63,232 nt of DNA from Candidatus Zixiibacteriota bacterium (lineage in GTDB: Bacteria; Zixibacteria; MSB-5A5; GN15; JAAZOE01): the NCBI GenBank assembly GCA_043819555.1, contig JBDREQ010000067.1, positions 1 to 63,232 of the forward strand, given 5' to 3'. Shown here piece by piece: positions 26,096 through 46,488 of the stretch (its first letter is position 1; each line of letters opens with the position of its first letter). The notes beneath the pieces were generated by a model, which had not been told where the DNA came from, did not search any database, and saw only the letters and a program-made list of their open reading frames with translations. The position numbers were made by a program, and so were the translations under genes.

Positions 26096-28519
26096 ATGAA
26101 AAAATTCGGCTGGATAGCAGGTATTTTCGTTGCCCTGATAATCTCAATTTGCGGAGGAATGTACTTCTTCCTCAGATCAACCCTGCCTGAATATAACGGA
26201 ACCATAATTATTGATGGAATTGAGGATGAAATTGAAATAATCCGCGATTCTTTCGGCATGCCTCATATTTATGCTAAAAATGACAATGATGCCGGTTTTG
26301 CCCTTGGCTATTGTACGGCTCAGGACAGGCTTTTTCAAATGGAAATGATCCGGCGCGCCGTCAAAGGAAAACTGTCTGAAGTTATTGGCCCTGAAACTGT
26401 TGAAGTCGATCGTCTATTCCGCCTGATTACTTCGGGAAAATCAATTGAGGAGAAATTCGAGTTATTGCCTAATGAAGTAAAAAATATGATGACCGCCTAT
26501 GCCGATGGCGTTAATCATTTTATTAATAATCCCGACGCCAATTTCCCGATTGAGTTTTCTCTTATCGGATTTCAGCCCGAGCTCTGGGAACCAGCCGATG
26601 AATTATGCGTCATTTATTACATGGCCTGGACGCTTAATTTCTCTTTTGATATCGAATTGACTTATGAGGCGGTTAAAAATAAAGTCGGTCAGGAATTGGC
26701 AGATGAAATATTTATTGATTATCCCAAAGGCGCACCGACCATTTTGCCGGGCCAATTCAATTTAACCGGCGCCAATAGATTCCTGAAAACAATCCGAGCC
26801 GCTCGAGACCTGACGGGTATGCCGTTTCGAGGAGGAAGCAATAACTGGGTCATAGCGGGAAAGAAATCAAAGACCGGTATGCCGATTCTGGCCAATGATA
26901 TGCATCTTGGCCTCGGCGCCCCTGGAATCTGGTATGAAGCTCATCTGAATACACCCAATTTGAATGTGTCCGGAGTCTGCCTGCCCGGTGTGCCGCTTAT
27001 AGTCGCCGGAGCCAATGACAATATTGCCTGGGGTTTCACCAATGTTATGGCCGACGATGCCGACTATTATCTTGAAAAAATAAATCCGGCTAATGGCAGC
27101 CAGTGCGAATACGACAACCAATGGCTGGAGATATCAGGGCGTGAAGATACTATTTTCATCGCCAATGATTCTCCCGTTGTGATAAATATCCGTCACACGG
27201 GGCATGGCGTAATAATTGATGATATTATTGAGGACACCTTCTGGAAACATGCCGACACTTCTTATTCAATCGCGATGCGCTGGACTTTGGATGATTTTAA
27301 TGACGAACCGACCGCTTTTTACCATCTCAATCGCGCAGCTAATATTGATGATATTGAAGCCGCGGTCAAGTTATACAAATGCCCGGGGCAGAATTGGGTA
27401 TATGCCGACAGGGAGGGAAATATCGGATACTGGGCGGCGGTTGGGATCCCGATTAGAGACGGATTTGACGGCTCTCGAATACTGCGTGGCTGGAATAGCA
27501 AAAACGATTGGGCCGGATATGTCGAAACAAAAAACCAACCCCATATCAGAAATCCTGAAATCGGATGGATCGCGACAGCCAACAACAAAACCGTTAGCGA
27601 CGATTACCCCTATTATATTTCACAATCATTCGCCCCTCCCGACAGGTATGTTCGCATCCAAAATCTATTAAATAGCAAAGAAAAATTGGGTATTGATGAC
27701 ATTAAGGCCATGCACGCCGATAATTATATGATCGCCGGTGAAAAATGGACTCCCCAGATTATTGCCGCAGTAGCCGGTAAATCGCTTAAAGAATTTGAGA
27801 CTGAGGCCCTTGATAATCTGAACAACTGGAATTATCGCACTGACAAAAACAGTATTGGGTCATCTGTTTTTCACGCAATTCTGCAATTTATCGTCGAAAA
27901 CATATTTCGCGAGAGAATAGGCGATGATTTATATTTCTACTATTTGTCGCATAATAATTTTGGAGTGCACAAGGCGCTGCACTCTCTTCTTGATAATCCA
28001 ATCTCAAAATGGTTTGATAATCCTCAAACGGAAATCGAAGAAAACAGGGATGATGTATATCGCAGGAGTTTTTCACAGGGCGTTGAATTTCTAAAAAACA
28101 ATCTGGGCGATGATATAGAACAATGGCAATGGAGCCATCTGCATTCTTTAACGTTTTATAATTCCGTCGGTCGCAATATTCCTATTTTAAAAAACTGGAT
28201 GAATATCGGACCATTTCCGGTCGGAGGCAGCTCTCACACGGTCAACCCCGCCCTATATAGCCTGCTCAATCCCTGGGAACCTCTGGCGGGGGCTTCTCAT
28301 CGGCATATTTTTGATTTGGGAAATACGAAAAACTCTTTACGCATAATTCCCTGCGGTATCTCGGGAAATTTCATGAGTCACCATTATGACGATCAGGTTA
28401 ATCTGTGGCTGAACGTCGATTATCGGTCGTTTCAAATTGACCGGGAAGATATTGTAGAGGGTGCCGCTTACAAACTTACCTTGGTACCTCGGACAAATAT
28501 AGATAGTACTAAAAATTGA
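26096..28519 (+). CDS. Penicillin acylase family (Ntn hydrolase, S45)
   Basis: N-terminal TM anchor, RD..GMPHIYA, AQDRLFQM, GSNNW autoprocessing site, LANDMHL, ATANN. Confidence 0.93.
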   Translation: MKKFGWIAGIFVALIISICGGMYFFLRSTLPEYNGTIIIDGIEDEIEIIRDSFGMPHIYAKNDNDAGFALGYCTAQDRLFQMEMIRRAVKGKLSEVIGPETVEVDRLFRLITSGKSIEEKFELLPNEVKNMMTAYADGVNHFINNPDANFPIEFSLIGFQPELWEPADELCVIYYMAWTLNFSFDIELTYEAVKNKVGQELADEIFIDYPKGAPTILPGQFNLTGANRFLKTIRAARDLTGMPFRGGSNNWVIAGKKSKTGMPILANDMHLGLGAPGIWYEAHLNTPNLNVSGVCLPGVPLIVAGANDNIAWGFTNVMADDADYYLEKINPANGSQCEYDNQWLEISGREDTIFIANDSPVVINIRHTGHGVIIDDIIEDTFWKHADTSYSIAMRWTLDDFNDEPTAFYHLNRAANIDDIEAAVKLYKCPGQNWVYADREGNIGYWAAVGIPIRDGFDGSRILRGWNSKNDWAGYVETKNQPHIRNPEIGWIATANNKTVSDDYPYYISQSFAPPDRYVRIQNLLNSKEKLGIDDIKAMHADNYMIAGEKWTPQIIAAVAGKSLKEFETEALDNLNNWNYRTDKNSIGSSVFHAILQFIVENIFRERIGDDLYFYYLSHNNFGVHKALHSLLDNPISKWFDNPQTEIEENRDDVYRRSFSQGVEFLKNNLGDDIEQWQWSHLHSLTFYNSVGRNIPILKNWMNIGPFPVGGSSHTVNPALYSLLNPWEPLAGASHRHIFDLGNTKNSLRIIPCGISGNFMSHHYDDQVNLWLNVDYRSFQIDREDIVEGAAYKLTLVPRTNIDSTKN

Positions 28520-28569: not shown

Positions 28570-29640
28570 ATGAACAACAGATGCTATCTGGCTGCCCTTT
28601 TAATATTGTTTGCCTTATGTTTGAGCTCAACTACATACGGTCAGGAACAGAGCGATACAGACGAAAACATAAACGATACTTTTGCGCCATCGGAAGAAGG
28701 GTACGAACCTCATGCATTGATTGATTCAAATGCAATCGCCGCTCAATCTGAAGTGCCCTCCTCACCCCCGACTTTCTGGGATTTCATAACTTCAGGTAAA
28801 TATATCACTTTTATAATTCTAATGGTAGCAGGATTGATAATCCTATTCACCAAATGGATAAATTACTGGATACGCCTCGGAGCAATGGTTGTCATTTTTA
28901 TACTATTCGGGCTCGATTATTTCTTTCCCCTTCATCCCAGCCCGATGTGCGGCGTAACCAAATTGTTTATGTTCAAAATCACGATGGGCAAGTTTTTCCC
29001 GGCTTTTCTGGCAATGTTTGCGGCGATAATGATTCCCAGCTTAATCGGAAGAAAACTATTTTGCGGTTGGGTTTGCCCTCTGGGAGCGTTTCAGGAACTT
29101 ATCAATAAAATACCGCATAAGTTCAAATGGAAAAATTTCAATTTCACCGCTTTCAATACGGTCCGGATATCTCTTTTAATTATGTTCTTTTTGACTTTCT
29201 TTTACGTCCGCGATCTTTTTATCGGCTTGGGGCAGCAAATCGAAATGAATCCGTTTATTGGCGTCTGGCCCGCGTTTTCCGCGCATAGCATATATGATCC
29301 GATAAACTTCTTTGAACTTTTGCACTGGTCGGTCGATACGACTTTCATTGTCCTGATGTCTATTCTTGTAATATCATCATTTATTATTTATCGCCCGTTT
29401 TGCTATTTAATTTGCCCTATCGGAGTGTTGACCTGGTTTTTGGAAAAAATATCATTGGGCAAAATCAAAATTGATTACAACGCCTGCAACGAGTGCGGTA
29501 TTTGTGAAGATGAGTGCCCTTGCCCCACGATTAAGCCTATGCGGGAAAACACAAGCAAGGCTCTCCCTGATTGTACCTCCTGCGGAGAATGCATAAAGGC
29601 TTGTCCGGAAGATGCGATTCAATTTAAGTTCTTGAAATAA
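28570..29640 (+). CDS. Membrane 4Fe-4S binding protein (NapH/FixG-like)
   Basis: FCGWVCPLG, FCYLICPIG, C..C..C...CP and CTSCGECIKACP; several TM helices. Confidence 0.85.
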   Translation: MNNRCYLAALLILFALCLSSTTYGQEQSDTDENINDTFAPSEEGYEPHALIDSNAIAAQSEVPSSPPTFWDFITSGKYITFIILMVAGLIILFTKWINYWIRLGAMVVIFILFGLDYFFPLHPSPMCGVTKLFMFKITMGKFFPAFLAMFAAIMIPSLIGRKLFCGWVCPLGAFQELINKIPHKFKWKNFNFTAFNTVRISLLIMFFLTFFYVRDLFIGLGQQIEMNPFIGVWPAFSAHSIYDPINFFELLHWSVDTTFIVLMSILVISSFIIYRPFCYLICPIGVLTWFLEKISLGKIKIDYNACNECGICEDECPCPTIKPMRENTSKALPDCTSCGECIKACPEDAIQFKFLK

Positions 29641-32800: not shown

Positions 32801-33757
32801 ATGAAACGTCGCGATTTTATTAAGAAAACCACACAAGCCGCAGCATTGGCGGCAGTCACCGGAACGACCGGATGGTTGTTTCACAACAGGAAAGTTTCTC
32901 CTGATGTAAAACTAAGTATTTCCAATATTGATTACCGAATTGACGATAATGCCGAACTGCCCAAAATCGTATTGGCTCGAAATGAAAACCACATTCAGGC
33001 CTTGCGTGCCGCGCTTGATAGTATCGGAGGGATAAAAAGATTTATACTGCCGGGCGACCGAGTAGTAATCAAACCGAATGTCGGATGGGATCGCGCCCCC
33101 GAACAGGCCGCCAATACAAATCCTCTATTGGTCGGAGAAATGGTCAGGCAATGCCTCACGGTCGGAGCTTCGCAAGTAATTGTCACTGATGTAACCTGCA
33201 ATCACGCTCCCCGCTGTTTTATCCGTTCCGGAATCCGAGAGGCGAGCGAAAGAGCTGGAGGCGTTGTCATGCTTCCGCGCGAAGAAGATTATATCCGGAC
33301 CGACATGGGAGGAAAACTCCTTACCGTCTGGCCGATTCTCAAACATTTTATCGAGACTGACAAATTGATCAATATGCCGATTGTCAAACACCATTCGCTA
33401 TCATCCTGTACGATTGGAATGAAAAATCTCTATGGTATTCTCGGAGGACGGCGCAATCAATTACATCAGGAGATTGACCAATCGATTGTCGATCTGGCCG
33501 CATACTGCAGACCGACTCTGACCGTTGTCGATGCCACGCGCGTTTTGATGCGAGGCGGTCCGACCGGAGGATCGCTCGATGATGTATCGCTTCAGCATTC
33601 GGTCATCTGCGCCACCGATACTGTTGCGGCCGATGCCCGTGGCGTAGAATTTCTGGGTATTGAACCTGATAAAATCGGCCATATCATTCTGGCAGAAAAA
33701 AGCGGACTGGGCACGATTGATTATCTCAGTGCCGGATATAAAGAGATTGCCGCATGA
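32801..33757 (+). CDS. DUF362 family protein with Tat signal
   Basis: MKRRDFIK twin-arginine start at 32801; GD.VVIKPN, NTNP, INMP..KHH, GMKNLYG, D.VAAD. Confidence 0.88.
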   Translation: MKRRDFIKKTTQAAALAAVTGTTGWLFHNRKVSPDVKLSISNIDYRIDDNAELPKIVLARNENHIQALRAALDSIGGIKRFILPGDRVVIKPNVGWDRAPEQAANTNPLLVGEMVRQCLTVGASQVIVTDVTCNHAPRCFIRSGIREASERAGGVVMLPREEDYIRTDMGGKLLTVWPILKHFIETDKLINMPIVKHHSLSSCTIGMKNLYGILGGRRNQLHQEIDQSIVDLAAYCRPTLTVVDATRVLMRGGPTGGSLDDVSLQHSVICATDTVAADARGVEFLGIEPDKIGHIILAEKSGLGTIDYLSAGYKEIAA

Positions 33758-35418
33758 ATATAAAAACCATAAGAAATATCAGGCGCGTATCGCAAGTTTT
33801 GTTTTTTTCAATATTTTTCTGGCTGATTCTCAAAACCAATTTCGAAGTAAATTTTTCGGGTGAAGGCGATATCACTCTCCCCTATCCCGTATCGTTATTT
33901 CTTGAATTTGACCCGTTGACGGCATTGGGAACACTTCTCGCCACCGGAACAATATACAAGGGTCTTCTCTGGTCGCTGGTTATTCTAATTCCAACGATAT
34001 TTCTGGGACGATTCTTTTGCGGATGGATGTGCCCGCTGGGAACTCTCAATCACTGGATATCCGAAATCCCTTCGGAACGTTTGAAGCGCAAGGGCAAAAG
34101 TAAAATCAATTCCAACCGTTACAAAAAATATCAGCGCATCAAGTATTATATCTTTTTGATATTTATTGCCGGATCGCTGGTTGGGACTCTGCAAATCGGA
34201 CTTTTGGATCCCTTGCCATTTCTGGCCCGTTCGATCGGGACGGTTGTACTGCCTACTCTGCATACTGCTTCGCTTGCTACCGTAGCATGGATAAAATCAA
34301 TCGGCTGGCCTCCGCTGGGCGACGCCGCTCAGTATCTATATAATATCGTAGCGGCCTTATTATTGCCTTTCAGGCAAATGCACTTCCACACAATTTTTTC
34401 GCTGGGCTTGTTTTTTGTTCTTGTGCTTGGACTCAATCGCGTTTTTACCCGTTTCTGGTGTCGTGGTATCTGTCCGCTTGGGGCGATGCTCGGATTTTTT
34501 TCTCGTTATGCTATCTTTGGACTTAAGAAAGACGAATCGACCTGCGATAAATGCAATCTCTGTCTGGAGCATTGTCAGGGCGCAGACAATCCCGAAATCG
34601 GATCCAAATGGCGCCAGGCCGAATGCCATCTCTGTCTCAACTGCCAGGCTTCATGCCCCCAGGGATCTTTGTCTTTTTGTTTCTTCCCGGATCAAGAAAC
34701 AACCAAAACCAATCCCGCGCCAACCCAAAAGGTCGATATCACTCGCAGAAAAGTTTTAGCCTCAGTCGCCGGAGGATTGGCTTTGTTTCCCTTTATTCGT
34801 TCCGGCGATATTTTTGACGCCAACCCCAACCCGTTTTTAATTCGGCCGCCCGGTTCAGTCGAGGAAGACTGGTTTCTCAAACGATGTATCCGCTGCGGGC
34901 AGTGCATGCGCGTCTGTCCCAACAACGCTATCCATCCGACCCTGATGGAATCGGGCATGGAAGGTATCTGGACGCCGATATTGATTATGAAAATCGGATA
35001 CTGCGAACCGACCTGTACACTATGCGGTGAAGTCTGCCCGACAGGAGCGATTTTGCCAATGACCTTAAAAGAAAAAGTCGGCGACAAAGATAACCACCCC
35101 GACCGTATCGGGACCGCCTTCTTTGACCGGGGTCGCTGTTTGCCATGGGCGATGGGTAAAACCTGTCTCGTCTGCGAAGAATGGTGCCCGACTTCGCCCA
35201 AAGCGATCTTTTTGAAAGAAGAAGAAGATTTCGACCGCAACGGTAAATTAGTCACTATCAAGAGACCGTATATCGAACCGGACGTTTGCACCGGATGCGG
35301 GGCGTGCGAATATGCCTGTCCGGTGATTGACAAACCGGCAGTGTATGTCACCAATGTCGGCGAATCCCGCTCCGCCAAGAATCAAATTTTGTTACAAAGA
35401 AAGGGGATCAGTAAATAG
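33754..35418 (+). CDS. Membrane polyferredoxin (NapH/MauN-like fused to NapG/MauM-like domain)
   Basis: GRFFCGWMCPLG, RFWCRGICPLG, internal TRRKVL + TM, IRPPG, multiple CxxCxxCxxxCP motifs. Confidence 0.88.
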   Translation: MNIKTIRNIRRVSQVLFFSIFFWLILKTNFEVNFSGEGDITLPYPVSLFLEFDPLTALGTLLATGTIYKGLLWSLVILIPTIFLGRFFCGWMCPLGTLNHWISEIPSERLKRKGKSKINSNRYKKYQRIKYYIFLIFIAGSLVGTLQIGLLDPLPFLARSIGTVVLPTLHTASLATVAWIKSIGWPPLGDAAQYLYNIVAALLLPFRQMHFHTIFSLGLFFVLVLGLNRVFTRFWCRGICPLGAMLGFFSRYAIFGLKKDESTCDKCNLCLEHCQGADNPEIGSKWRQAECHLCLNCQASCPQGSLSFCFFPDQETTKTNPAPTQKVDITRRKVLASVAGGLALFPFIRSGDIFDANPNPFLIRPPGSVEEDWFLKRCIRCGQCMRVCPNNAIHPTLMESGMEGIWTPILIMKIGYCEPTCTLCGEVCPTGAILPMTLKEKVGDKDNHPDRIGTAFFDRGRCLPWAMGKTCLVCEEWCPTSPKAIFLKEEEDFDRNGKLVTIKRPYIEPDVCTGCGACEYACPVIDKPAVYVTNVGESRSAKNQILLQRKGISK

Positions 35419-36523
35419 TAACCGTCAACTTGTATAATTCTCTATCATTATTAAGATACCATATTAAATGATCTTGTTTCGAATAATGGAATTCAATCTG
35501 AATATTACTGAATGGATTTGAATCTTCGTGGCCTCTATAAATTAGTCTAAATAACCGATGGAGCTTCACAGAATACCCATATGTATCGACATCTCCATCC
35601 CAATCCTGTGTAATTTCCCCGAAGCGAACACAGCCGGTTTCAAACAATCCAAGTTCAATCCCATATTTTTTTCGCCTGTTATCATAATCGATATCTCGGT
35701 TTTGATTTTCATTTTCGTAAGCAGCTGTAATTGAAATAATATCTATTGTTTCGTCAGCATATTCTATCGCCAATCCAACTTTAGTAGAAAATCCAAATCT
35801 TGAAATTCGGCATAACGGAACATTTTGACCAAGTGCGTCAAGATCCGGACCAATATTAGAATTTGACCATCCAAACGCGGGATAAATGTATAAGCTGGAA
35901 CCGTTGAATAGTGAATTATTCAATGATTTTATATTTACTTGACGGCCAAATAATAATCCATAATCAATAGCATGTGTAGACCATGATTCAGCATCGTATG
36001 ATTCGCCAATCAACTTCAACGATATCCCTGCACTTATATCAAGAAACGTCCTTAATCCATGTGCAAAAACCAAATTATGCATAAAATCATGCGCCATAAA
36101 ATATTCCCCTGTCCCATCAGGATATTCATATGTAGTATAAGGTATCGGTCCAGCTTCTATAGACGTCCGAAAATATCCAATACTAACTCTATGATTCTCA
36201 TTCAATCCAAAAATACCCACCGGAAATGAGAAGAGAGCATTGCACGAGCCAAATTTTATCACATTTGAAACAAAATTGTTTTTTACCGGCCAAAAACTGG
36301 TCGAGAAACGATAGGGCTTAGCAGGTGGCGCTATTAATGCAGGATTAAAATACGGAGAATTCAAATCGACTATGGCCACCCCGGCTTCCCCCATCCCATT
36401 GGCTCGAGGCGAAGGAGAAAAGGCCAAAAAACCAGTTCCTGCCGTCCCCACTTTTGCCTGCGAATAAGCCATTGCCGAAAAACCCAAAAGCAATACTGCA
36501 AATGCCAATAGCAATCTTTTCAT
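35408..36523 (-). CDS. PorV/PorQ-like outer-membrane protein
   Basis: Signal peptide MKRLLL..YSQ; KVGTAG..FL....RA.GMGEA, NPA; C-terminal aromatic residue; GGAGG SD. Confidence 0.7.
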   Translation of the reverse strand: MKRLLLAFAVLLLGFSAMAYSQAKVGTAGTGFLAFSPSPRANGMGEAGVAIVDLNSPYFNPALIAPPAKPYRFSTSFWPVKNNFVSNVIKFGSCNALFSFPVGIFGLNENHRVSIGYFRTSIEAGPIPYTTYEYPDGTGEYFMAHDFMHNLVFAHGLRTFLDISAGISLKLIGESYDAESWSTHAIDYGLLFGRQVNIKSLNNSLFNGSSLYIYPAFGWSNSNIGPDLDALGQNVPLCRISRFGFSTKVGLAIEYADETIDIISITAAYENENQNRDIDYDNRRKKYGIELGLFETGCVRFGEITQDWDGDVDTYGYSVKLHRLFRLIYRGHEDSNPFSNIQIEFHYSKQDHLIWYLNNDRELYKLTVTIY

Positions 36524-36624
36524 ACAACCTCCATATAATTCGACAAATATGGATAGAATTGCCCCGATTGTCAAGGCGGACATGAATGTAAATTAGAAAT
36601 TAAAATATGCTATTGTGATTGTGG

Positions 36625-36690
36625 TTGGAGTATGTCCCCGTGCGCCAAGTATGAATTTCATGGCAGACGAGGACATCCGCCATGCACAAA
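36625..36690. repeat. Degenerate REP-like inverted-repeat pair
   Basis: ATGTCCCCGT...GCCA arm facing TGGCAGACGAGGACAT arm in an intergenic region. Confidence 0.35.
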
Positions 36691-36698
36691 ATAGAGAA

Positions 36699-38810
36699 TC
36701 ACCGCCGCAACGTCCCAACAATCGCAAGCATTAGAAGTCCCGCAAGTGACAATATCAGCCACATAACGCCGATGATGGGGAGTAAGATCGTTGTCGTGAG
36801 AAGCGCCGCCGCGGCTGAGCCTGCGATTTCCACCGCATACCCTGCTCCTCGATTATTATCGAGATAGATGGCATAATACCGATTGGTCGCACCGACGAAC
36901 AATGTCCCCGTTCCTAATGCCGTCACAAACAAAAAACAAATATGAAAATAAATCGCTTCGTGCGGGCCAACGTTCTGGTACAAACTGAGAAACATAATTG
37001 CCGCTGCCAAAAGCAATAAAAGTGCTGACTGTTCGATTCGCATTCGCACATCCTGACGATGCGCGTACCATGTTCCTACGGCCAGGCCGAACATAAACGT
37101 TCCAATAAGAACCGCAATCTCCGAGTAAAGCGATCCGGCCGTCGATTGATACAAATAAAAAGATAAAAGCTCAAACGACAGCGAAACCGCGCCGGCCGTA
37201 AAATATAAAAACAACGGAAAACCGTTACGATTGTTATAAGTCAATCGCGACATAAAAAAGAATGCTAATATCAAAATCGGAATCGCGTACATCCAGGAAT
37301 GATTGGTAAGAATTCCATGAATCAATATCCGGTCAAATTCATGTGTCGTCGAACGGTACATTGTCTGATAATGAGTCAGGATCGGTTTTTCAAGCGAATT
37401 AAATTTCTCAAACTTACCGGCGGCCTGCATCACTCTCTCGGTTTTCATTTCATCCAAACGATCATGGAGATATTCGGGATTGATAATCTTAGGCTGATAG
37501 CCCAGCGAAACGCTCAGACTCATCACCGAATCAGGCGAGATCGTAATCCTATCCGCATCCGAAGCAAAATACAGCGTCATCGTTCCCGGCCAGATATTGA
37601 TATGGTTGAATGACTGTTCCAGAGTTTTATAAATCGCCGACAGTACCGGCTTCTTTTCAGGCGAAATATACCGGTCGGTATCGTATCCCGTCGGGATGTG
37701 CAGGACCCCGTCCTCTTTTAGCCACGTTTTGATCTTGATAATATTTTCCGTCGTTAGCATTCGGCTCGATTTATAACTATCCAGCATTCCCGGGTTGAGG
37801 ATGATAATATCATAATGGGTAATGCCGTCATGTCGAGAAAAATACTTAAGCGGATCATTGCTGATAGTCTTTGTGCCGGATGTAATAATATTTATCTCCG
37901 ATAATTGCCGACCGATTTCATCCCTCGGATCGAGAAAGGTCACCTGCGAAGTATCGACTAAAGAATAAAACTCCCCCCGCCCGATGAATAATATATTTTT
38001 GGCATCGGAATTATATATCATCGGCGGGATGAAATTGTTTTCGTATCGCTCTATATCGGGATAGACATCCTCGATGGCATTATCGGTCATCAATACAAAA
38101 TGACTATCTTTTTCCAATATAGCCTGATGTCCGTAAGGGGTGTCAAACGATGAGATGACACTGTACCCGTCGTATTTTAATACATCACACATTCTGTCGA
38201 TTATCGGAGCCGATATCACAACCGGAAATAACGCCGCAATCCCAATGATTGACGACAGGATTATATTTGATAATTTTTCGGATGTTAATGACATCGTGGT
38301 AATTACTATTGAAAAAACAAGCGCTAATCCCAGTGTGGAAAGTAAACTTCCGGCGATAATCGTTATGACTATCCCGCCAACAAAGGCTCCGATGCCTTCA
38401 AATAAATAAACAATAACAATTGATTCGCCGGGATCAATTCCCTGATTTGATACGGCGCTGAACAGCCATCCAGAAATTAATCCGGCCGGGAACATGGCAA
38501 TAATCGAAACCATCGCCGCTTTACCAAATGGTACAATCTCGCCCACCACCGGCGACAAAAATGCTGGAAATAATCTGACGGCGATAATCGTAATCGGAAC
38601 CAGAGCCGCTCCGATGATAAATAGTATCGTCGTATTGACACGGCGTTTTTTTCCGCCCAGGTATGCCCCGATGGCGACCGAAATCAGCCAGCCGAACAAA
38701 GCCGTGCCAATAAATAACTCATCTCCGTTGAATGATGATATGATTTCCCGCAGGAGAAGAACCTGTCCCCCAATGGAAAATAGCCCAAGCAAAAACGCCT
38801 GCCGGCGCAT
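36699..38810 (-). CDS. Membrane protein with central spermidine-synthase-like domain (fused MFS/spermidine synthase type)
   Basis: GQVLLLRE....F.G.EL N-terminal TM block, DTPYGH, YDIIILN, L...GVL, C-terminal TM block with YQ...G.LY.E. Confidence 0.8.
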   Translation of the reverse strand: MRRQAFLLGLFSIGGQVLLLREIISSFNGDELFIGTALFGWLISVAIGAYLGGKKRRVNTTILFIIGAALVPITIIAVRLFPAFLSPVVGEIVPFGKAAMVSIIAMFPAGLISGWLFSAVSNQGIDPGESIVIVYLFEGIGAFVGGIVITIIAGSLLSTLGLALVFSIVITTMSLTSEKLSNIILSSIIGIAALFPVVISAPIIDRMCDVLKYDGYSVISSFDTPYGHQAILEKDSHFVLMTDNAIEDVYPDIERYENNFIPPMIYNSDAKNILFIGRGEFYSLVDTSQVTFLDPRDEIGRQLSEINIITSGTKTISNDPLKYFSRHDGITHYDIIILNPGMLDSYKSSRMLTTENIIKIKTWLKEDGVLHIPTGYDTDRYISPEKKPVLSAIYKTLEQSFNHINIWPGTMTLYFASDADRITISPDSVMSLSVSLGYQPKIINPEYLHDRLDEMKTERVMQAAGKFEKFNSLEKPILTHYQTMYRSTTHEFDRILIHGILTNHSWMYAIPILILAFFFMSRLTYNNRNGFPLFLYFTAGAVSLSFELLSFYLYQSTAGSLYSEIAVLIGTFMFGLAVGTWYAHRQDVRMRIEQSALLLLLAAAIMFLSLYQNVGPHEAIYFHICFLFVTALGTGTLFVGATNRYYAIYLDNNRGAGYAVEIAGSAAAALLTTTILLPIIGVMWLILSLAGLLMLAIVGTLRR

Positions 38811-39952
38811 CAGAAAAACCGTCCGGGAATGATTCTACCGCATGATTTACATTTGTTTTTATTCATACCGGAAAGATAGGTGCGATATCCGCGACGTTCG
38901 ATTAACATCTCGTTGCATTTGGGACAATAGGTGGATTCGGCTTTGTGACCGGGGATATTGCCCAGATAAACATACTCCAAACCCTCGGCCCGGCAAATCG
39001 CAAGAGCTCTTTCCAGAGTCGCCTGGGGCGTCGGCGGGAGATTTTTCAGAAGATACTGAGGATAAAAGCGCGAGAAATGTATCGGAACATCGGTTCCCAG
39101 ATGGTTTTTTATCCATCGGGCCAAATCGGTAAACTCAGCATCAGTATCATTGAGCGTTGGAATAACCAGATAGACAATCTCAAGCCACACATCTGATTTC
39201 TTAATCTGTACCAGACTATCGAGAACCGGTCTGAGTTCGCCATCAACGTAATTTTTATAATATGTTTCGCGAATCGCCTTTAAGTCAATTTTTACGGCAT
39301 CGAGCTGCGTTAGAAGTTCGGATAGAGGTTCAGGGTTAATGTACCCGCCGGATATCATTACCGATTTGATTCCATGCCTATGACCCAGCTCGGCGGTATC
39401 ATACATATATTCATAAAATATTACCGGCTCGCTGTAGGTATAAGCGATCGTCGGGACTTTCCGCTCGCGGCATAAGGCGATAATGTCTTCGGACGGCATA
39501 GAAATATTATCGGTTTGTTCCGGCCGGGATTGCGATATATCCCAGTTCTGACAGCATTTACAATTGACATTGCATCCGGCCGTTGCCAATGAAAAGGCGC
39601 TCATTCCGGGATAAAAATGATGAAAAGGTTTTTTCTCGATCGGATCGATATTGATTGCGCATGGCAGTCCATAAACGAGGGTATAATAAATATCACCGCG
39701 ATTTTCGCGTGAACCGCAATATCCTCGCTCCAGATCGGTCATACGGCACCGCCGGGGACATATTCCGCATTCGACCCCGCCTTCAGGAAGTTTTTTATAA
39801 AAGCGAGCTTCGACCGACGAAAGTTCTTTGGTGTAATCAAAAGCGCAGGCGTTTTGGATGCCTCCCAGAAATTCCGGCAGTAACCCGGAATGCGATACCG
39901 CCGCCGCGCACGCCCCGCATCCGATAAACTTCATGAATTTCCGCCGATCCAT
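38810..39952 (-). CDS. amrS: AmmeMemoRadiSam radical SAM enzyme with Tat signal
   Basis: DRRKFMK Tat motif; CGICPRRC, DPIEKKP, GCNVNCKCCQNW.ISQ (CxxxCxxC), AYTYSEP, IDLK, HFSRFYP.Y, VYLGN, C-terminal CPKC..CKSC. Confidence 0.92.
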   Translation of the reverse strand: MDRRKFMKFIGCGACAAAVSHSGLLPEFLGGIQNACAFDYTKELSSVEARFYKKLPEGGVECGICPRRCRMTDLERGYCGSRENRGDIYYTLVYGLPCAINIDPIEKKPFHHFYPGMSAFSLATAGCNVNCKCCQNWDISQSRPEQTDNISMPSEDIIALCRERKVPTIAYTYSEPVIFYEYMYDTAELGHRHGIKSVMISGGYINPEPLSELLTQLDAVKIDLKAIRETYYKNYVDGELRPVLDSLVQIKKSDVWLEIVYLVIPTLNDTDAEFTDLARWIKNHLGTDVPIHFSRFYPQYLLKNLPPTPQATLERALAICRAEGLEYVYLGNIPGHKAESTYCPKCNEMLIERRGYRTYLSGMNKNKCKSCGRIIPGRFF

Positions 39953-40872
39953 TAGAACAATTCCCCTTTGCTAACAGAACCATCCTTAGCGATTGTCAAA
40001 ACACCGATATCAATCTTTGTAAGATTTGCCTGCCCTAATCCCAATTTTTCCGCCGCATCAAGATATTTCACTTCCCGGCCAAGCTCTTTCAATGATTTTC
40101 TGCCGTTTCTTGTCCTTATATGATTTAGAATCTCCAGAGCGACACAGTCGGCCGCAACGGGATCAGCCGATAATATCAAGCCGTTATATGCATCAAAAGA
40201 ATGCGGGGCATATCCCGGCCCATTGTCGTATTGTACTTTTATAGCGTCGATAATTGTCAGGCGATGCTTGTCTCGAACGGGGGTCAGATTATTTATATCA
40301 GCGGCATGAGGGCTGCAATTGTTGTCATGGTACTTATTAGGATTATGAATCGCGCCGTACATATTTTTCAATCCCGCCGACATCCCGGCAATGGAATGAT
40401 CCTTCAGAATCGGAATATTAACACTATGCTCAATCATTTTCGACATAATTTTGGACACCATTGAATTCACATTGCCTGAGTTCAGAAAATCAGAATCATA
40501 ACCAATTGTAGCGGTGTCGGTTCCGAGACACATCACACCCGACGCAGAAGCGTTAAGAGTATATCCCGCTTTTTTTAGCTCGCGATTTGTGCGTTCCCAG
40601 ATTATCAAATCGTTTTCATTATAGCCGGCAAATTCTTTCAGCAAATTTATAAACGCCTCTGTCAAATTTGCCGGCGTCGCATTAAACGGCGTCAGGCAAT
40701 TGGTTTTCATTCCAACCGCCCCCCCCGTGAAACGCAGATTGAAATACTCTCTGAGTAATATATCGCCCGCTATAAAACCAACTCCGGTTTTAATCATTCT
40801 CTCATAAAGACTTACTGAAATTATTTTTTCAGATAAATCACCGGAATATTTTATGACCGCCACCCTGCTCAT
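39952..40872 (-). CDS. DUF362 family protein (no export signal)
   Basis: VGMK.NCL, IIWER...EL, NIPILKDH..AG....LKNMYG.I.NP...H, DPVAAD; likely start MSRV at 40872. Confidence 0.8.
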   Translation of the reverse strand: MSRVAVIKYSGDLSEKIISVSLYERMIKTGVGFIAGDILLREYFNLRFTGGAVGMKTNCLTPFNATPANLTEAFINLLKEFAGYNENDLIIWERTNRELKKAGYTLNASASGVMCLGTDTATIGYDSDFLNSGNVNSMVSKIMSKMIEHSVNIPILKDHSIAGMSAGLKNMYGAIHNPNKYHDNNCSPHAADINNLTPVRDKHRLTIIDAIKVQYDNGPGYAPHSFDAYNGLILSADPVAADCVALEILNHIRTRNGRKSLKELGREVKYLDAAEKLGLGQANLTKIDIGVLTIAKDGSVSKGELF

Positions 40873-40968
40873 ACTAATAATATACAAACCATTCTGGCAC
40901 GGGTGTCAAGCCTTTTTACCTTGACCCAAAATCAAAAATCAACGTATTTTTTATCAGAGGTATTAATC

Positions 40969-42432
40969 ATGAGAGTGCGTATAATCTGTGCTGGAATTAT
41001 TATAATAATCGTATGGGGAATGGCTGCGCCGGGAGCCGCAATGGAAAAATCAACAGAGGCAATTATACGCCATCCAGCCGTTTCGGGGATGTTTTACCCT
41101 TCTGACGGCGAGGATTTACTCGAAACGGTCAATAAGCATCTGGCCGATGTGAAAGATATTCCTGAAATTGATGGCCAGATAATCGCGCTAATAGTACCGC
41201 ATGCCGGAATCGTATATTCCGGGCCGATCGCCGCGTATTCTTACAAACTTCTGGAGAATTCGAGTATAGATAATGTTATCCTATGCGGTCCATCGCATCG
41301 CGTGCCCTTTGACGGTATTTCGGTTTACGGACCCGATGTAATCTGGCAAACTCCCCTCGGAGATGTTGTTTGCGACAACGATTTATGCCGCCGCCTTATC
41401 GAAAACAACAAATCAGTCAAATTATTTGAGGAAGCGCACAGGCAGGAGCACTCACTCGAAGTCCAGCTTCCATATTTGCAGGCCGTATTAAAAGAATTCA
41501 GTCTGATTCCGGCGACAATGGGGTTTCCCACTCCCGAGACAATTGACGCTTTGACCGAAGCCTTAATAGATCTGGATACGGATGAAAGAACGGTCATGAT
41601 CGCCTCTACCGATTGGCAACATTATATGTCGGCCAAAGAAGGCTGGAAATACGATTCATTGGGATTGGAATGCCTGGAAAACTTGAACCCCGATAAATTG
41701 CAAAGTCTTTTGGTGGAGAAAAAGACACAAATGTGCGGCGGAGCGCCGGCGGTGGCCGTCATGAAAGCGGCGATGGCCAAAGGAGCCAATAAGGTCAAAA
41801 TATTAAAATATGGCGATTCCGGCGATATTACCGAAGATAAAAGTTCTGTTGTTGGATATGCCGCAGCGGTTTTATATAAAGCCAATGAAAAAAATGAACT
41901 CTCAGATAATGATAAAGAAAAGCTGTTAAAAATAGCCCGGCAGTCGATTGAAACTTATCTGGAGACTGAAACAGTCCCCATATTTGATGTCCCCGAATCA
42001 TTGAAACGCCCCGGGGCCGCCTTTGTGACGCTTGAAAAAGATCATCGTCTGCGGGGCTGCATTGGTCAAACCATAGCCGTCACGCCTCTTTTTGAAACCG
42101 TATCGCACTGCGCCATTCAGGCGGCTTTGTCTGATCCGCGCTTTCCGCCGGTGAAGAGAGGGGAAATGAATCAGATTCATATCGAAATTTCTGTATTAAC
42201 GCCGCTTCAAAAGGTTGAATCTCTTGATGAAATAGAAGTCGGCCGCGATGGACTAATGATCTCTATGGGTAGAAATCGAGGTTTACTGCTTCCTCAGGTC
42301 GCTACCGATTACGGCTGGGATCGTGAGACGTTCCTCAGGCAGACTTGCAAAAAAGCCGGCCTCGCACCCGACGCTTATAATTCGAAACAGGCGGAAATCT
42401 TTATGTTTCAAGCTATAATCTTTGAAGAATAA
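40969..42432 (+). CDS. AmmeMemoRadiSam protein B (Memo) - protein A (AMMECR1) fusion with signal peptide
   Basis: Start MRVRII at 40969 after GAGG; R.PAV.G.FYP, PHAG.VYSG, GPSH, EHSLEVQLP, STD..HY, MCG, VVGY; then FVTL, LRGCIG, DPRF, EISVLT, GLLLPQV. Confidence 0.92.
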   Translation: MRVRIICAGIIIIIVWGMAAPGAAMEKSTEAIIRHPAVSGMFYPSDGEDLLETVNKHLADVKDIPEIDGQIIALIVPHAGIVYSGPIAAYSYKLLENSSIDNVILCGPSHRVPFDGISVYGPDVIWQTPLGDVVCDNDLCRRLIENNKSVKLFEEAHRQEHSLEVQLPYLQAVLKEFSLIPATMGFPTPETIDALTEALIDLDTDERTVMIASTDWQHYMSAKEGWKYDSLGLECLENLNPDKLQSLLVEKKTQMCGGAPAVAVMKAAMAKGANKVKILKYGDSGDITEDKSSVVGYAAAVLYKANEKNELSDNDKEKLLKIARQSIETYLETETVPIFDVPESLKRPGAAFVTLEKDHRLRGCIGQTIAVTPLFETVSHCAIQAALSDPRFPPVKRGEMNQIHIEISVLTPLQKVESLDEIEVGRDGLMISMGRNRGLLLPQVATDYGWDRETFLRQTCKKAGLAPDAYNSKQAEIFMFQAIIFEE

Positions 42433-42478
42433 ACGCACCGCAAATGAATCATATGAAAGCAAACCTGGGGAGTTCTCT

Positions 42479-43441
42479 TTGAAATATCAATTACCATGTA
42501 CGGTATTTTATCTATGCATGTTTCTTATTATGATCGGGTGCGGCAAAAAATCCGAACAGGTAAATCGAGATTTATCACAAGCGGAATCAATTAATATCGT
42601 CTCCACGACAAGCATGATCGGCGATCTGGCGGCAAATATCGGCGGGCAGCGGGTTGCCGTCAAGACTCTGATGGGGCCCGGAATCGATCCTCATTTATAC
42701 AAGGCCAGCCAGCGCGATGTGATAATTCTCGCTGACGCTGATATTATATTCTTTAATGGACTGCATCTTGAAGGAGCCATGTCCGAAGTTTTGGAACAAA
42801 TGGAAACATTCGGCATCACCATGGCCGTTGCCGGAAACATACCTGAAGAAAAATTAATATCACCCAAAGAATTTTCCCGCGCTCATGATCCCCATATTTG
42901 GTTTGATGTCCAATTATGGAGCTATGCCGTCGAAGCCGTCTATCAAACATTAGCAAAACTGGACTCTGCGCACATTGATATCTATAAGAAGAATTTTGAG
43001 AGATATCAGGCCGAATTGGAACAACTTCATGAATATGTATTGCATGAATCGGCCAAAATCCCGGAAAATATTCGAGTTCTGATAACCGCCCATGATGCCT
43101 TCAATTATTTTGGACGCGCCTACGGATTTGAGGTCAGGGGGCTTCAGGGGATCAGCACCGCCTCGGAAGCAGGAACCGCTGATGTTCAAAATCTGGCCTC
43201 TTTTATCGTTGAAAGAAAAATCCCGGCAATATTTATTGAATCATCAGTCCCCCAGCGAAATATTGAAGCTGTTCAGGCCGCCGTCGCGGCCCGTGATTTT
43301 GAAGTAGTTATCGGAGGTGAGCTTTTTTCCGATTCAATGGGTGATAAAAACACACCGGAGGGAAATTACATTGGCATGGTCAAACACAATGTAAATATGA
43401 TTGTAGCGGCCTTGATCGGCCCCGGGAGTAATCTCGAATAA
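42479..43441 (+). CDS. Mn/Zn ABC transporter substrate-binding lipoprotein (TroA-like)
   Basis: TTG start after GGGGAG; lipobox MIGC; GIDPHLY, NGLHLE, DPHIWFD, HDAFNYF, LFSDS. Confidence 0.93.
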   Translation: MKYQLPCTVFYLCMFLIMIGCGKKSEQVNRDLSQAESINIVSTTSMIGDLAANIGGQRVAVKTLMGPGIDPHLYKASQRDVIILADADIIFFNGLHLEGAMSEVLEQMETFGITMAVAGNIPEEKLISPKEFSRAHDPHIWFDVQLWSYAVEAVYQTLAKLDSAHIDIYKKNFERYQAELEQLHEYVLHESAKIPENIRVLITAHDAFNYFGRAYGFEVRGLQGISTASEAGTADVQNLASFIVERKIPAIFIESSVPQRNIEAVQAAVAARDFEVVIGGELFSDSMGDKNTPEGNYIGMVKHNVNMIVAALIGPGSNLE

Positions 43442-43457
43442 GGAAACGGACAGATAG

Positions 43458-44219
43458 ATGAATGAAAAATCAAAAAATGAAGTCATTCCAGCCATTGATA
43501 TCGAGGATATGACTGTCGCCTATCGCGATAAACCGGTTTTGTGGGATGTGGATTTGATTGTGCCGCAGGGTGTGCTCATGGCCATCGTCGGTCCTAACGG
43601 AGCCGGAAAAACGACATTGATAAAAGCCGCACTGGGATTGATTACTCCCGCCGCGGGACGAGTTCTCATCTATGGAAAACCATATCCCGAACAAAGGCGC
43701 ATGGTCGGTTATGTGCCGCAACGCGGCTCAGTTGACTGGGATTTCCCGACTACCGTTTTGGATGTCGTCATGATGGGCAGATACGGTCATCTGGGATGGA
43801 TTCGCCGCCCCGGCAAACGTGAAAAAAACGCGGCCGAAGAAGCTCTCGAAAAAGTCGGAATGATTGACCTTGCCAGCCGTCAAATAAACCAGCTTTCGGG
43901 AGGACAAAAGCAGCGAACTTTTTTGGCCCGGGCTTTGGTTCAGGATGCTCACGTTTATTTAATGGATGAACCGTTCCAGGGTGTTGATGCCACAACCGAG
44001 CGAGCGATAATTCAATTGCTGCGGGAGCTAAGGGAATCAGGAAAAACCGTCGTCGTGGTTCATCATGATCTGCAAACCGTATCGGAGTATTTCGATTGGG
44101 TCACGCTCCTGAATGTCCGCCGCATCGCCAGCGGACCGGTCAAAGATGTTTTCACCGATGATAATTTAAAAACCGCTTATGGTGGCCGGGTTGGCTTTTT
44201 GCAGGCAATGCAAAAATAG
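43458..44219 (+). CDS. Mn/Zn ABC transporter ATPase (TroB-like)
   Basis: [36 protein letters not shown]. Confidence 0.95.
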
Positions 44220-44248
44220 AAAGAACTTATTTAGGGAACAGGTCTATC

Positions 44249-45382
44249 TTGGACGGAATATTATACGATCTCATTTTTGACTATACCCTGCGAACGGTCG
44301 CTCTCGGCTCGGGTGTTTTGGGTCTTGTCAGCGGCGCTTTGGGATGTTTTGCTGTTTTGCGGCGCCAATCGCTGATGGGTGATGCCATGTCGCATGCCGC
44401 CTTGCCCGGAATTGTCATCGCCTTTATGCTGACCGGAATGAAAACACCGCTTGTATTAGTAATCGGCGCGGCTCTTGCCGGATGGTTGGGAACTCTTAAA
44501 ATCATGAGCATCGTCAACCTGACCCGTCTTAAACATGATGCCGCCATGGCTCTGGTGCTATCCGTCTTTTTTGGACTGGGGTTGGTACTCCTTACTTTTA
44601 TTCAAAAAACGCCGCAGGCGGCTCAGGCCGGATTGGAAAACTTTCTTTTTGGGCAAGCGGCCGCGCTTATGGTACAGGATGTTATCATTATGGCCATAAT
44701 CGGCCTGATAACCCTGGTTATTCTGGCTGGCCTATGGAAAAGATTCAAGCTTTTGAGTTTTGACGTCGAATATGGCCAAAGCATGGGAATTCCCATGAGG
44801 ATACTCGATATTATTTTGACCGGCCTGCTGGTCCTGGCCATCGTTATCGGCCTCCAAACGGTCGGGGTCGTCCTAATGAGCGCCATGATTGTCGCTCCCG
44901 CAGCGGCCGCCCGACAATGGACTGACAAACTGGGGGTGATGGTGTTTTTGGCCGCGATATTCGGGGCGGCGTCAGGCATTAGCGGCGCGGTCGTCTCCAG
45001 TACCGCCGAAAAACTGCCGACTGGGCCGACGATAGTATTATGCGTCAGCGGAATTGTTTTTGTGTCGTTATTGTTTGCTCCCAACCGAGGGATAATCTGG
45101 AATAAGATACGCCGGAATAAAAACCGCCGAAAATTGCGTCTTGACGCGGTCATCTGTGACCTCTATTCGCTCGCCCTGCAGCACGATGATTTTTCCCATG
45201 CCCACGATACGGCAACTTTGATAGCCATGAGTCCCGGGCAGGCCGGGATAAAATTCAGTCTGGAAGAACTTGAACGCCGCGAGCTCGTAAAAATCACGGA
45301 AACTAATCAATGGGTTCTGACAGAAAAAGGCATTGATGAGGCCAAACTAATCAGTTCTAAATTCAGAGGGCAGAATAATTGA
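44249..45382 (+). CDS. Mn/Zn ABC permease (TroC-like) with C-terminal winged-helix-like extension
   Basis: GDAMSHAALPG, FLFGQAA, GLQTVGVVL, PTGP; tail ..LERRELV....QWVLTEKGIDEA. Confidence 0.9.
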   Translation: MDGILYDLIFDYTLRTVALGSGVLGLVSGALGCFAVLRRQSLMGDAMSHAALPGIVIAFMLTGMKTPLVLVIGAALAGWLGTLKIMSIVNLTRLKHDAAMALVLSVFFGLGLVLLTFIQKTPQAAQAGLENFLFGQAAALMVQDVIIMAIIGLITLVILAGLWKRFKLLSFDVEYGQSMGIPMRILDIILTGLLVLAIVIGLQTVGVVLMSAMIVAPAAAARQWTDKLGVMVFLAAIFGAASGISGAVVSSTAEKLPTGPTIVLCVSGIVFVSLLFAPNRGIIWNKIRRNKNRRKLRLDAVICDLYSLALQHDDFSHAHDTATLIAMSPGQAGIKFSLEELERRELVKITETNQWVLTEKGIDEAKLISSKFRGQNN

Positions 45383-46488
45383 ACTCATTCCAACTGGAAA
45401 TACAAATGATCGCCGCGATGGTGGCAGTTGCCTGCGCTCTTCCCGGAGTATTTCTTGTCTTGCGTCGGATGGTCCTGATGAGCGATGCCATTAGCCATTC
45501 GATTCTATTTGGAATTGTCCTCGCCTTTTTTATCACGGGAGATATCAATTCGCCCTTTTTGATTTTGGCCGCCGCCGCGACCGGTGTTTTAACGGTCGTA
45601 TTGGTTGAGCTAATCAAAAAAACAGGATTGGTCAAAAAGGACGCCTCAATCGGACTTGTTTTCCCGGCTCTTTTCAGCATTGGCGTCATTTTGATTTCCA
45701 GATACGCCGGAAACGTCCATCTTGATGTTGACGCCGTCCTGCTTGGGGAATTGGCTTTCTCTCCATTTAATAGATTTGAATTGGTCGGTTATGACATGGG
45801 GCCCAAATCACTTTGGGTCATGTCGGTCATCCTGATTCTGAACATCACGTTCATCATCATCTTTTTTAAGGAACTCAAACTGGCGACCTTTGACGCCGGA
45901 CTTGCAGCAGCCATCGGCTTTTCTCCGGTAATTCTGAATTATCTTTTGATGTCATTCGTTTCGATTACTGCCGTGGGAGCTTTCGATGCTGTCGGGTCGA
46001 TTCTCGTTGTGGCCCTTATGGTCGGACCGGCCGCATCCGCCTATCTTTTGACCGACCGCCTGGGCATAATGCTTATCATCAGCGCTGTTTTGGGAATAAT
46101 TTCGGCCATTGGCGGCTACTGGCTGGCGCATTTTCTTGATGCCTCAATAGCAGGTTCAATTGCAGTTATGACCGGAGTAATTTTTGGTCTGATATTTTCA
46201 TTCGCGCCTCAACAGGGGATCGTGGCAATTTTCAGACGTCGGACGAGGCAGAAATGGGAATTTGCACAAACGATGCTGGTTATGCACATTTCTCAGCATC
46301 AGGGCACGCCGGGACAGTCCGAAGAATGTCGCATAGCGACACTATATCATCACATGCACTGGGATGTAATTTTCACCGAGCAGGTTTCGCAGATGGCTCT
46401 AAAAAAGCAATTGGTGAAAGAGGAAAACGATTGCCTGCTTTTGACCGACAACGGCCGTCAATTGGCGTCTGAAACTCTCGCTCTATAA
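45379..46488 (+). CDS. Mn/Zn ABC permease (TroD-like) with C-terminal winged-helix-like extension
   Basis: SDAISHSIL.G, VHLDVDAVLLGE, AFDAVGSILV; tail ..KQLV.....LLLTDNGRQLA. Confidence 0.9.
   Translation: MNSFQLEIQMIAAMVAVACALPGVFLVLRRMVLMSDAISHSILFGIVLAFFITGDINSPFLILAAAATGVLTVVLVELIKKTGLVKKDASIGLVFPALFSIGVILISRYAGNVHLDVDAVLLGELAFSPFNRFELVGYDMGPKSLWVMSVILILNITFIIIFFKELKLATFDAGLAAAIGFSPVILNYLLMSFVSITAVGAFDAVGSILVVALMVGPAASAYLLTDRLGIMLIISAVLGIISAIGGYWLAHFLDASIAGSIAVMTGVIFGLIFSFAPQQGIVAIFRRRTRQKWEFAQTMLVMHISQHQGTPGQSEECRIATLYHHMHWDVIFTEQVSQMALKKQLVKEENDCLLLTDNGRQLASETLAL

Follow-up and report, generated by a model that had tools for sequence, protein, structure and literature searches.

Conserved export signals in an AmmeMemoRadiSam locus of Candidatus Zixiibacteriota suggest an extracytoplasmic paralogue of the system

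The window analyzed in this study is a stretch of 63,232 nucleotides (nt) from a Candidatus Zixiibacteriota bacterium (contig JBDREQ010000067.1 of assembly GCA_043819555.1). Its part from 32801 to 42432 encodes a variant of the AmmeMemoRadiSam system, in which the radical S-adenosylmethionine (SAM) enzyme, AmrS, and the fused Memo and AMMECR1 proteins (AmrB-AmrA, hereafter AmrBA) carry predicted export signals. SAM, a low-potential reductant, and oxygen-sensitive clusters are all needed by radical SAM enzymes, and for this reason such enzymes are regarded as confined to the cytoplasm. An earlier sequence-only reading of this DNA had described the genes and proposed a periplasmic radical-SAM pathway. 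Here, the locus was followed up by profile scans, genome comparison, and structure prediction.

Gene content and predicted export signals

Gene calling and Pfam/NCBIfam profile scans found seven genes between 32801 and 42432 (Table 1), and all features described by the sequence-only reading were present. Two of the genes encode DUF362 proteins of different subfamilies, designated DUF362T and DUF362b. The gene of DUF362T overlaps that of a polyferredoxin by 4 nt. DUF362b, amrS, and the gene of a membrane fusion protein form an operon, with overlaps of 1 nt at DUF362b/amrS and at amrS/MFS-SpeE, in agreement with the overlaps noted earlier; the fusion protein, MFS-SpeE, joins a major facilitator superfamily (MFS) fold to a spermidine synthase (SpeE)-like domain. 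The AmrBA gene is divergent from this operon. No public sequencing runs or RNA sources were listed for 36699-42432.

Table 1. Features of the locus, with coordinates in the window
Feature	Coordinates	Strand	Support
DUF362T	32801-33757	+	PF04015, E 5e-44, 151.1 bits vs gathering score 24; N-terminus MKRRDFIKK
Polyferredoxin, NapH-NapG-type fusion	33754-35418	+	NapH-type matches, residues 9-161 and 218-308; NapG match, residues 325-534, E 5.5e-30
PorV/PorQ-like outer-membrane protein	35408-36583	-	NF033709, E 1e-15, below its cut-off
MFS-SpeE fusion, 703 amino acids	36699-38810	-	AlphaFold2 (AF2) predicted fold
AmrS, radical SAM enzyme, 380 amino acids	38810-39952	-	TIGR04337, 361.8 bits vs cut-off 220, residues 49-379
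AmrS predicted Tat signal peptide, residues 1-37	39842-39952	-	MDRRKFMK, mildly hydrophobic region, A35-C36-A37/F38
DUF362b	39952-40872	-	ATG of MSRVAVIKY; alternative TTG at 40887; PF04015, E 2e-18, 67.6 bits vs 24
AmrB-AmrA (Memo-AMMECR1) fusion, AmrBA	40969-42432	+	TIGR04336, 256.8 bits vs 26; TIGR04335, 187.3 bits vs 99; leader MRVRIICAGIIIIIVWGMAAPGAA

Leaders were assessed throughout by regular expression, hydropathy, and reading. The N-terminus of AmrS reads as a twin-arginine translocation (Tat) signal, as had been noticed from its MDRRKFMK start and ACA/F end. It scored 18.3 bits against the Tat model TIGR01409 (cut-off 16.7). The leader pattern, M-x-R-R-x-F-[ILM]-[KR] followed by a mildly hydrophobic stretch and G-G-x-Q-N-A-x-A/F, was found in 20/20 orthologues from three families of the order. 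TatC (PF00902) is encoded in the same genome (G000, contig C25; 232 bits). Lipoprotein processing at the Cys residues of the AmrS leader was considered and rejected, because these residues are too near the twin-arginine (RR) motif to come after the hydrophobic region. Many AmrS Tat leaders contain two or three Cys residues within the hydrophobic stretch (K-C-x-G-C-G-A; 39890-39930 here, and leaders in loci L021-L060), and L034 and L040 have none.

The enzyme behind the signal carries a CX3CX2C motif at C127/C131/C134, an N-terminal Cys cluster (C62, C65, and C69), and a C-terminal CxxC...CxxC. All Cys ligands and SAM-motif residues were kept in 92/92 aligned AmrS sequences; hence, the signal-bearing forms look catalytically intact. 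AmrS stayed below the cut-offs of the glycyl-radical activating enzyme models (NrdG2, 52.5 vs 131; PFLA, 50.2 vs 232). It is related to these enzymes (PflA/NrdG) but is not a member of them.

AmrBA begins with a signal of the general secretory (Sec) type, MRVRIICAGIIIIIVWGMAAPGAA, and this point of the sequence-only reading also held among orthologues: a hydrophobic leader lies 5' of the conserved REPAVAG in 16/16 assessable proteins, and these leaders are typical Sec or lipoprotein signals. The conservation of the leaders of AmrS and AmrBA, and of the internal signal of the polyferredoxin described below, indicates that these signals are more than chance.

If the true starts lay downstream, the signals would be an annotation artefact and the proteins ordinary cytoplasmic AmmeMemoRadiSam components. 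Only the general risk of start calls placed too far upstream speaks for this. Purine-rich Shine-Dalgarno-like motifs lie directly 5' of the ATGs that open MDRRKFMK (AmrS), MRVRIICAG (AmrBA), and MKRRDFIK (DUF362T), and argue against downstream starts. The amrS start shows TAATG coupling, and the start of AmrBA is the ATG at 40969, not the GTG at 40903. Moreover, the leaders are conserved at the protein level in all of the AmrS and AmrBA orthologues counted above, and a separate signal-less paralogue is present for comparison. We give an artefact next to no credence.

Paralogous copies and conservation of the cassette

The same genome encodes a leaderless AmrS, starting MIREALYQ (C73:56465-57463), and a leaderless Memo-AMMECR1 fusion (C6:1784-3223), which are unlinked. 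Given these signal-less copies, the set in the window appears to be an exported paralogue. The order-level comparison covered 41 genomes, which are related to one another. Full-length signal-bearing AmrS was found in 23 of them (68-100% identity), and 22 of these 23 encode a second AmrS copy of ~40% identity that aligns only from residue ~38-57 on. The polyferredoxin occurs in 23/23 genomes with signal-bearing AmrS and in 2/18 others. The corresponding counts for MFS-SpeE are 22/23 and 0/18, and the single miss has amrS at a contig end. Among the 11 genomes of its family, only G031 has signal-bearing AmrS, MFS-SpeE, or the polyferredoxin, and it has all three.

Conserved co-localization, which the sequence-only reading had named as a check, was found. 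The cassette, with AmrBA divergent from DUF362b-AmrS-MFS/SpeE, is present in 20/20 related loci, with gaps only at contig ends and AmrBA unmatched in L033.

A wider set of 80 AmrS loci, drawn from many phyla, was obtained by a scan of one genome per species. The AmrS leaders, assessed as above and with several signal classes set by reading, comprised 40 Tat-like ones (two doubtful), 10 of Sec type or anchor type without RR (mostly Omnitrophota), 26 proteins with none, and four that were left unjudged. The 26 signal-less AmrS were mostly from Pseudomonadota with separate AmrB and AmrA. Within the fetched flanks, MFS-SpeE lay beside 27/50 signal-bearing AmrS and 0/26 signal-less AmrS; when a flank of at least 5 kb was required on both sides, the counts were 14/21 and 0/13. 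DUF362b was adjacent to signal-less AmrS in 0/26 loci. A leader on AmrB(A) was found in 19/20 loci with signalled AmrS vs 2/22 with unsignalled AmrS. All six genes are clustered in three Acidobacteriota loci (L043, L045, and L052). A quick AmrS tree placed 36 Tat-type sequences and one unjudged sequence in one group (approximate likelihood-ratio test support, 98) and 23 signal-less sequences in another (100).

Compared with the canonical AmmeMemoRadiSam system, the window set passes all three models (TIGR04335 for AmrA/AMMECR1, TIGR04336 for AmrB/Memo, and TIGR04337 for AmrS), keeps the Cys ligands and SAM motif of AmrS, and has its genes as neighbours. It differs in the Tat signal on AmrS, in the fusion of AmrB and AmrA behind a Sec signal, and in the addition of a conserved MFS-SpeE and a DUF362 protein with an HNPNKYH loop, together with the co-occurring polyferredoxin/DUF362T pair.

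An open frame of 801 amino acids at L112:10025-12430 joins a signal-less AmrS to a Memo (AmrB) domain without a break in frame. This fusion argues for direct contact of AmrS and AmrB in the cytoplasmic system.

Partner proteins encoded with AmrS

Sequence searches against the PDB returned no match for MFS-SpeE, no match for DUF362T, and one match for DUF362b at E 0.82, which was of no use; folds were therefore predicted instead. The MFS-SpeE protein of the window also gave no Pfam or NCBIfam match at E <= 0.01, the NF037959 model of fused MFS/spermidine synthases included. Its AF2 model (predicted local distance difference test score, pLDDT, 94; predicted template-modelling score 0.94) consists of seven helices, a soluble domain (residues 213-503), and seven further helices. 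The label of a spermidine-synthase-like protein, which had been given from the sequence, was upheld by the fold: Foldseek matched the soluble domain to the aminopropyltransferase 3anx_B (E 8e-9; template-modelling (TM) score 0.66 on the target), and the family profile matched 1uir at E 2.5e-40. By structure comparison, the helices form an MFS fold, with VMAT2 as the best match (9kqa_A; Z 29.4, root mean square deviation 3.4, 322 residues aligned) and with VAChT and the DHA1 antiporter SotB also matched. A profile of 19 MFS-SpeE orthologues retrieved 3249 cluster representatives at E <= 1e-30. All 14 distant relatives tested match PF01564, and 10/14 reached the NF037959 cut-off (40 bits).

With the soluble domain placed outside, the loops of the 19 sequences contain on average 16.1 Lys plus Arg residues on the inner side and 1.0 on the outer side. 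From this bias, the domain is predicted to face outward. Each six-helix MFS lobe begins and ends in the cytoplasm. The outward placement agrees with this rule, in that helix 7 would lead to the insert on the outer face and helix 8 would lead back in. G277, D/E294, D319, and D334, which we take to be the adenosyl-binding positions of the aminopropyltransferase fold, are conserved in 98-102 of 104 family members. In SpeE, the motifs for aminopropyl transfer are GGGDG and D-x-x-D-P; at these sites, the family consensus of MFS-SpeE reads GGG-l-s-G and N-L-P-x-P.

MFS-SpeE thus shares the MFS fold, the aminopropyltransferase fold, and the nucleotide-binding positions with fused MFS/spermidine synthases (NF037959) and SpeE (PF01564; Thermus thermophilus 1uir/3anx). 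It differs from them in that the window protein matches neither model at the threshold given above, in that its soluble domain, with a predicted outward position, interrupts the membrane part after helix 7 and before helix 8, and in its IGRGEF and N339. A literature search found no paper on a fused MFS/transmembrane spermidine synthase. The sequence-only reading had assigned SAM or product handling to the membrane protein. From the modelled MFS fold, the outward domain, and the conserved adenosyl-binding positions, MFS-SpeE is a plausible handler of SAM.

The polyferredoxin starts with helices that bear CX3CP modules, which are followed by a cytoplasmic iron-sulfur (Fe-S) region, an internal RR (residues 331-332), a weakly hydrophobic helix, an Arg, and a NapG-like multi-cluster domain that is predicted to face outward. 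The NapH-like helices, internal RR, and NapG-like domain had all been read from the sequence, and the model matches bore them out, although the NapH and NapG matches were below the equivalog cut-offs. The internal T-R-R-K-V-L, the weakly hydrophobic helix, and the following Arg were found in 9/9 polyferredoxins, two of them from Acidobacteriota. In passages of Tooke et al. (2017; PMC5449189), a NapH-NapG fusion polyferredoxin was reported to need both Sec and Tat, as judged by reporter fusions. That protein and the window protein share the NapH-like helices and Fe-S modules, the RR before a weakly hydrophobic fifth helix and a positive charge, and the NapG-like C-terminal domain. In contrast, the partner of the window protein is a Tat-signal DUF362 protein, and an exported radical SAM cassette is found in the same genomes; the passages of PMC5449189 name no such partners.

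The DUF362 protein paired with it, DUF362T, belongs to the subfamily without the HNPNKYH loop. The MKRRDFIK noticed on one of the two DUF362 proteins is its N-terminus, and an RR leader is present in 6/6 orthologues. The DUF362T-polyferredoxin pair adjoins the cassette only in the family of the window, in 6/20 related loci (L021, L023, L024, L026, L038, and L039). Outside this family, its link to the cassette is co-occurrence in the same genomes. Genome G002, a single contig of the same family, encodes a polyferredoxin orthologue of 78% identity, and G007 one of 72% identity; neither has a signal-bearing AmrS or an MFS-SpeE match. The pair can thus exist without the cassette. For the electron-supplying role assigned earlier to the polyferredoxin, the architecture, which is of the type described in the passages of PMC5449189, is favourable, and the adjacency of the pair in just one family of the order is unfavourable.

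DUF362b, whose gene is coupled to amrS, is of the other subfamily. A loop G-A-I-H-N-P-N-K-Y-H was found in 17/17 AmrS-adjacent proteins (one with NPNKMH) vs 0/4 proteins of the DUF362T type. The AF2 model (pLDDT 91) was nearest to lactate racemase LarA in Foldseek (2yjg_B, E 1.6e-5, TM-score ~0.47; 5huq_A, E 8.9e-5). DUF362 and DUF2088, the family of LarA, belong to the same Pfam clan, CL0471, according to a passage of PMC11770544, and this shared clan fits the LarA-like fold. LarA entries were the best structural matches, but the TM-scores are only ~0.45, DUF362b is ~110 residues shorter, and the HNPNKYH loop is peculiar to the subfamily linked to AmrS. LarA and other nickel-pincer enzymes carry a cofactor-tethering Lys and Ni-binding His; the likeness measured for DUF362b is one of fold.

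DUF362b is without a signal in 20/20 loci of this order, the window included, and the 82-97 nt between DUF362b and the divergent AmrBA start are too few to encode a leader. In other phyla, an RR leader is present in 12/14 assessable loci. This combination suggests that DUF362b is co-exported with AmrS in Zixibacteria. In Zixibacteria, DUF362b (39952-40000 here; orthologues in L021-L040) also ends in a conserved tail, ...G-x-L-F, which abuts the overlapping amrS start, is absent in L042 and L049, and lies outside the interface described next.

A complex of mature AmrS (residues 38-380) and DUF362b was predicted with a score of 0.73, and the best of three controls scored 0.00. A score of 0.73 was attained by 116/157 solved complexes and by 2/215 mismatched pairs, a calibration that is rough since custom alignments were used. 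The runs agreed in at least 93% of contacts, and the partner pLDDT was at least 92. In the model, the HNPNKYH loop lies against AmrS residues 72-80, N130 (within CX3CX2C), and residues 141-146. Among DUF362b-linked AmrS, the interface positions E75, G80, and R143 were found in 32/32 sequences and Q146 in 30/32; other groups differ. DUF362b is thus a predicted partner or substrate of AmrS, with its HNPNKYH loop modelled at the radical-SAM site. The loop and its modelled placement at this site are new here. The earlier proposal that a DUF362 protein is the target of the pathway is supported by this model, but in part: the amrS-coupled DUF362b is unsignalled here, and the Tat-signal DUF362T is of a different subfamily.

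In Tat hitchhiker export, folded complexes are exported with the signal on one partner, according to passages of PMC10924467; the hydrogenase small and large subunits are an example. The arrangement here is similar, in that the gene of the signal-less DUF362b shows translational coupling with that of a Tat-signal Fe-S protein, which DUF362b is predicted to bind. It differs in that the carrier would be a radical SAM enzyme and in that, outside this phylum, a Tat signal is present on the passenger itself.

The same observations would suit chemistry that is completed in the cytoplasm. AmrS would modify DUF362b, or itself, with cytoplasmic SAM and reductant; the complex exported by Tat would work outside without SAM turnover, and MFS-SpeE and the polyferredoxin would serve the exported product. 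The translational coupling of AmrS and DUF362b, the predicted binding with the loop at the radical-SAM site, and the export of folded complexes with one signal fit this scheme, which also dispenses with periplasmic SAM. However, it leaves unexplained why a cleavable Tat signal on the maturase is conserved across many phyla and why a transporter with an outward SAM-binding-type domain tracks only signal-bearing AmrS. Furthermore, in the cytoplasm, a Sec-exported AmrBA cannot meet AmrS as a folded protein. We consider this scheme unlikely.

Proposed mechanism and neighbouring genes

We favour, with moderate confidence, the reading that the locus is an extracytoplasmic paralogue of the AmmeMemoRadiSam system with a five-step export mechanism, of which every step beyond the signals themselves is inferred. 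First, AmrS would gain its Fe-S clusters in the cytoplasm, be exported in the folded state by Tat, and lose its signal by cleavage after A35-C36-A37; what was observed is this signal, with its conservation. Second, DUF362b may bind AmrS via the HNPNKYH loop and be carried out with it, as a co-exported hitchhiker or as a protein modified by AmrS on the loop. Third, the Memo-AMMECR1 fusion would cross the membrane unfolded by Sec, and since it would be unfolded during this passage, it could meet folded AmrS only outside. Fourth, MFS-SpeE, as suggested by its modelled fold and topology, may deliver SAM or remove adenosyl by-products at the outer face. Fifth, the polyferredoxin and DUF362T may bring low-potential electrons across the membrane; the architecture is that of the family of Tooke et al. 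(2017), and the link to AmrS is co-occurrence. Of the periplasmic pathway proposed by the sequence-only reading, the conserved signals and the co-localization stand. Signal-less AmrS and AmrBA copies are also kept, and export, periplasmic SAM, and electron flow are putative.

A number of points weigh against this reading. The genomes of the order are related; hence, the co-occurrence counts overstate independence. The complex score is the model's own confidence, and the calibration counts hold roughly. DUF362b-linked AmrS form largely one clade in the quick tree, so common descent, and not binding, may account for the interface residues. The signal-less DUF362b of this order may stay cytoplasmic, and the chemistry may occur before export. 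The aminopropyl-transfer motifs are lost in the SpeE-like domain (GGGDG to IGRGEF, and the catalytic Asp to N339), and the polyferredoxin is found in the two genomes named above without signal-bearing AmrS. We know of no periplasmic SAM pool. Finally, 10/50 signal-bearing AmrS have a Sec-type leader or anchor without RR (L061, L063, L064, L065, L069, L076, L089, L093, L095, and L106). Sec cannot carry a folded Fe-S enzyme, so membrane attachment, not export, may be the conserved theme. The AmrS of L089 has a possible lipobox, LVTC.

These ten proteins are also the basis for membrane tethering without export, in which N-terminal anchors would hold AmrS and AmrBA at the cytoplasmic face, by MFS-SpeE and the polyferredoxin, and a membrane lipid or isoprenoid would be modified from inside. 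In at least two of the ten (L063 and L093), Arg residues follow the helix, so that an N-out, C-in orientation would be possible. Burroughs and colleagues reportedly proposed in 2019 that Memo systems are linked to isoprenoid modification. However, in the clade of the window, the positive charges before the helix and the AxA/F after it predict a C-out orientation and cleavage. The leaders of AmrBA have the usual form of Sec or lipoprotein signals, and the loop charges of MFS-SpeE place its soluble domain outside. We regard tethering as quite improbable.

A more specific form of the export mechanism can be put forward, although we hold it as a doubtful possibility. AmrS would be the first extracytoplasmic radical SAM enzyme; an MFS exporter would hand SAM to its own outward adenosyl-binding domain; a polyferredoxin inserted by Sec and Tat would wire the electrons; and DUF362b, riding on the Tat signal of AmrS in Zixibacteria, would be modified on its HNPNKYH loop to a new tethered cofactor or protein radical.

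No description of an exported or Tat-signal radical SAM enzyme was found in the literature searched, which did not cover the main comparative study (Burroughs et al., 2019, Journal of Biological Chemistry), so a prior description is possible. A passage on the HXS system (PMC13128918) describes constructs with Sec/Tat leaders on the effector HxsA, and not a signal on the radical SAM enzyme. If true, extracytoplasmic radical-SAM catalysis would bring radical chemistry into the cell envelope and imply SAM export. The signal-bearing variant is conserved across many phyla, and the orphan Memo/AMMECR1/radical-SAM system has human disease-linked relatives. The handles gained on this system are a predicted partner with an HNPNKYH loop, a defined AmrS interface, and a pair of copies, one exported and one cytoplasmic, in the same organism.

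Some neighbouring genes were also considered as parts of the system. The PorV/PorQ-like gene sits between the polyferredoxin and MFS-SpeE genes and is convergent with the former, with an overlap of 11 nt at its end. It was rejected as a part of the system, with a match of 28-31% identity in just 2/20 related loci. At 28570-29640 on the forward strand, beside a penicillin-acylase-like gene (26096-28519), lies the gene of another NapH-like Fe-S protein of the membrane, which contains an acidic stretch and whose N-terminus resembles a signal; no link of this NapH-like gene to the cassette was seen. The ZnuABC operon 3' of AmrBA was likewise rejected, its synteny being kept only in a genome of the same genus (L021). 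It spans 42422-46488. Its first gene, that of a ZnuA/AztC-like metal-binding lipoprotein, overlaps the 3' end of AmrBA by 11 nt in the gene call, and ZnuC and two ZnuB-like genes come after it.

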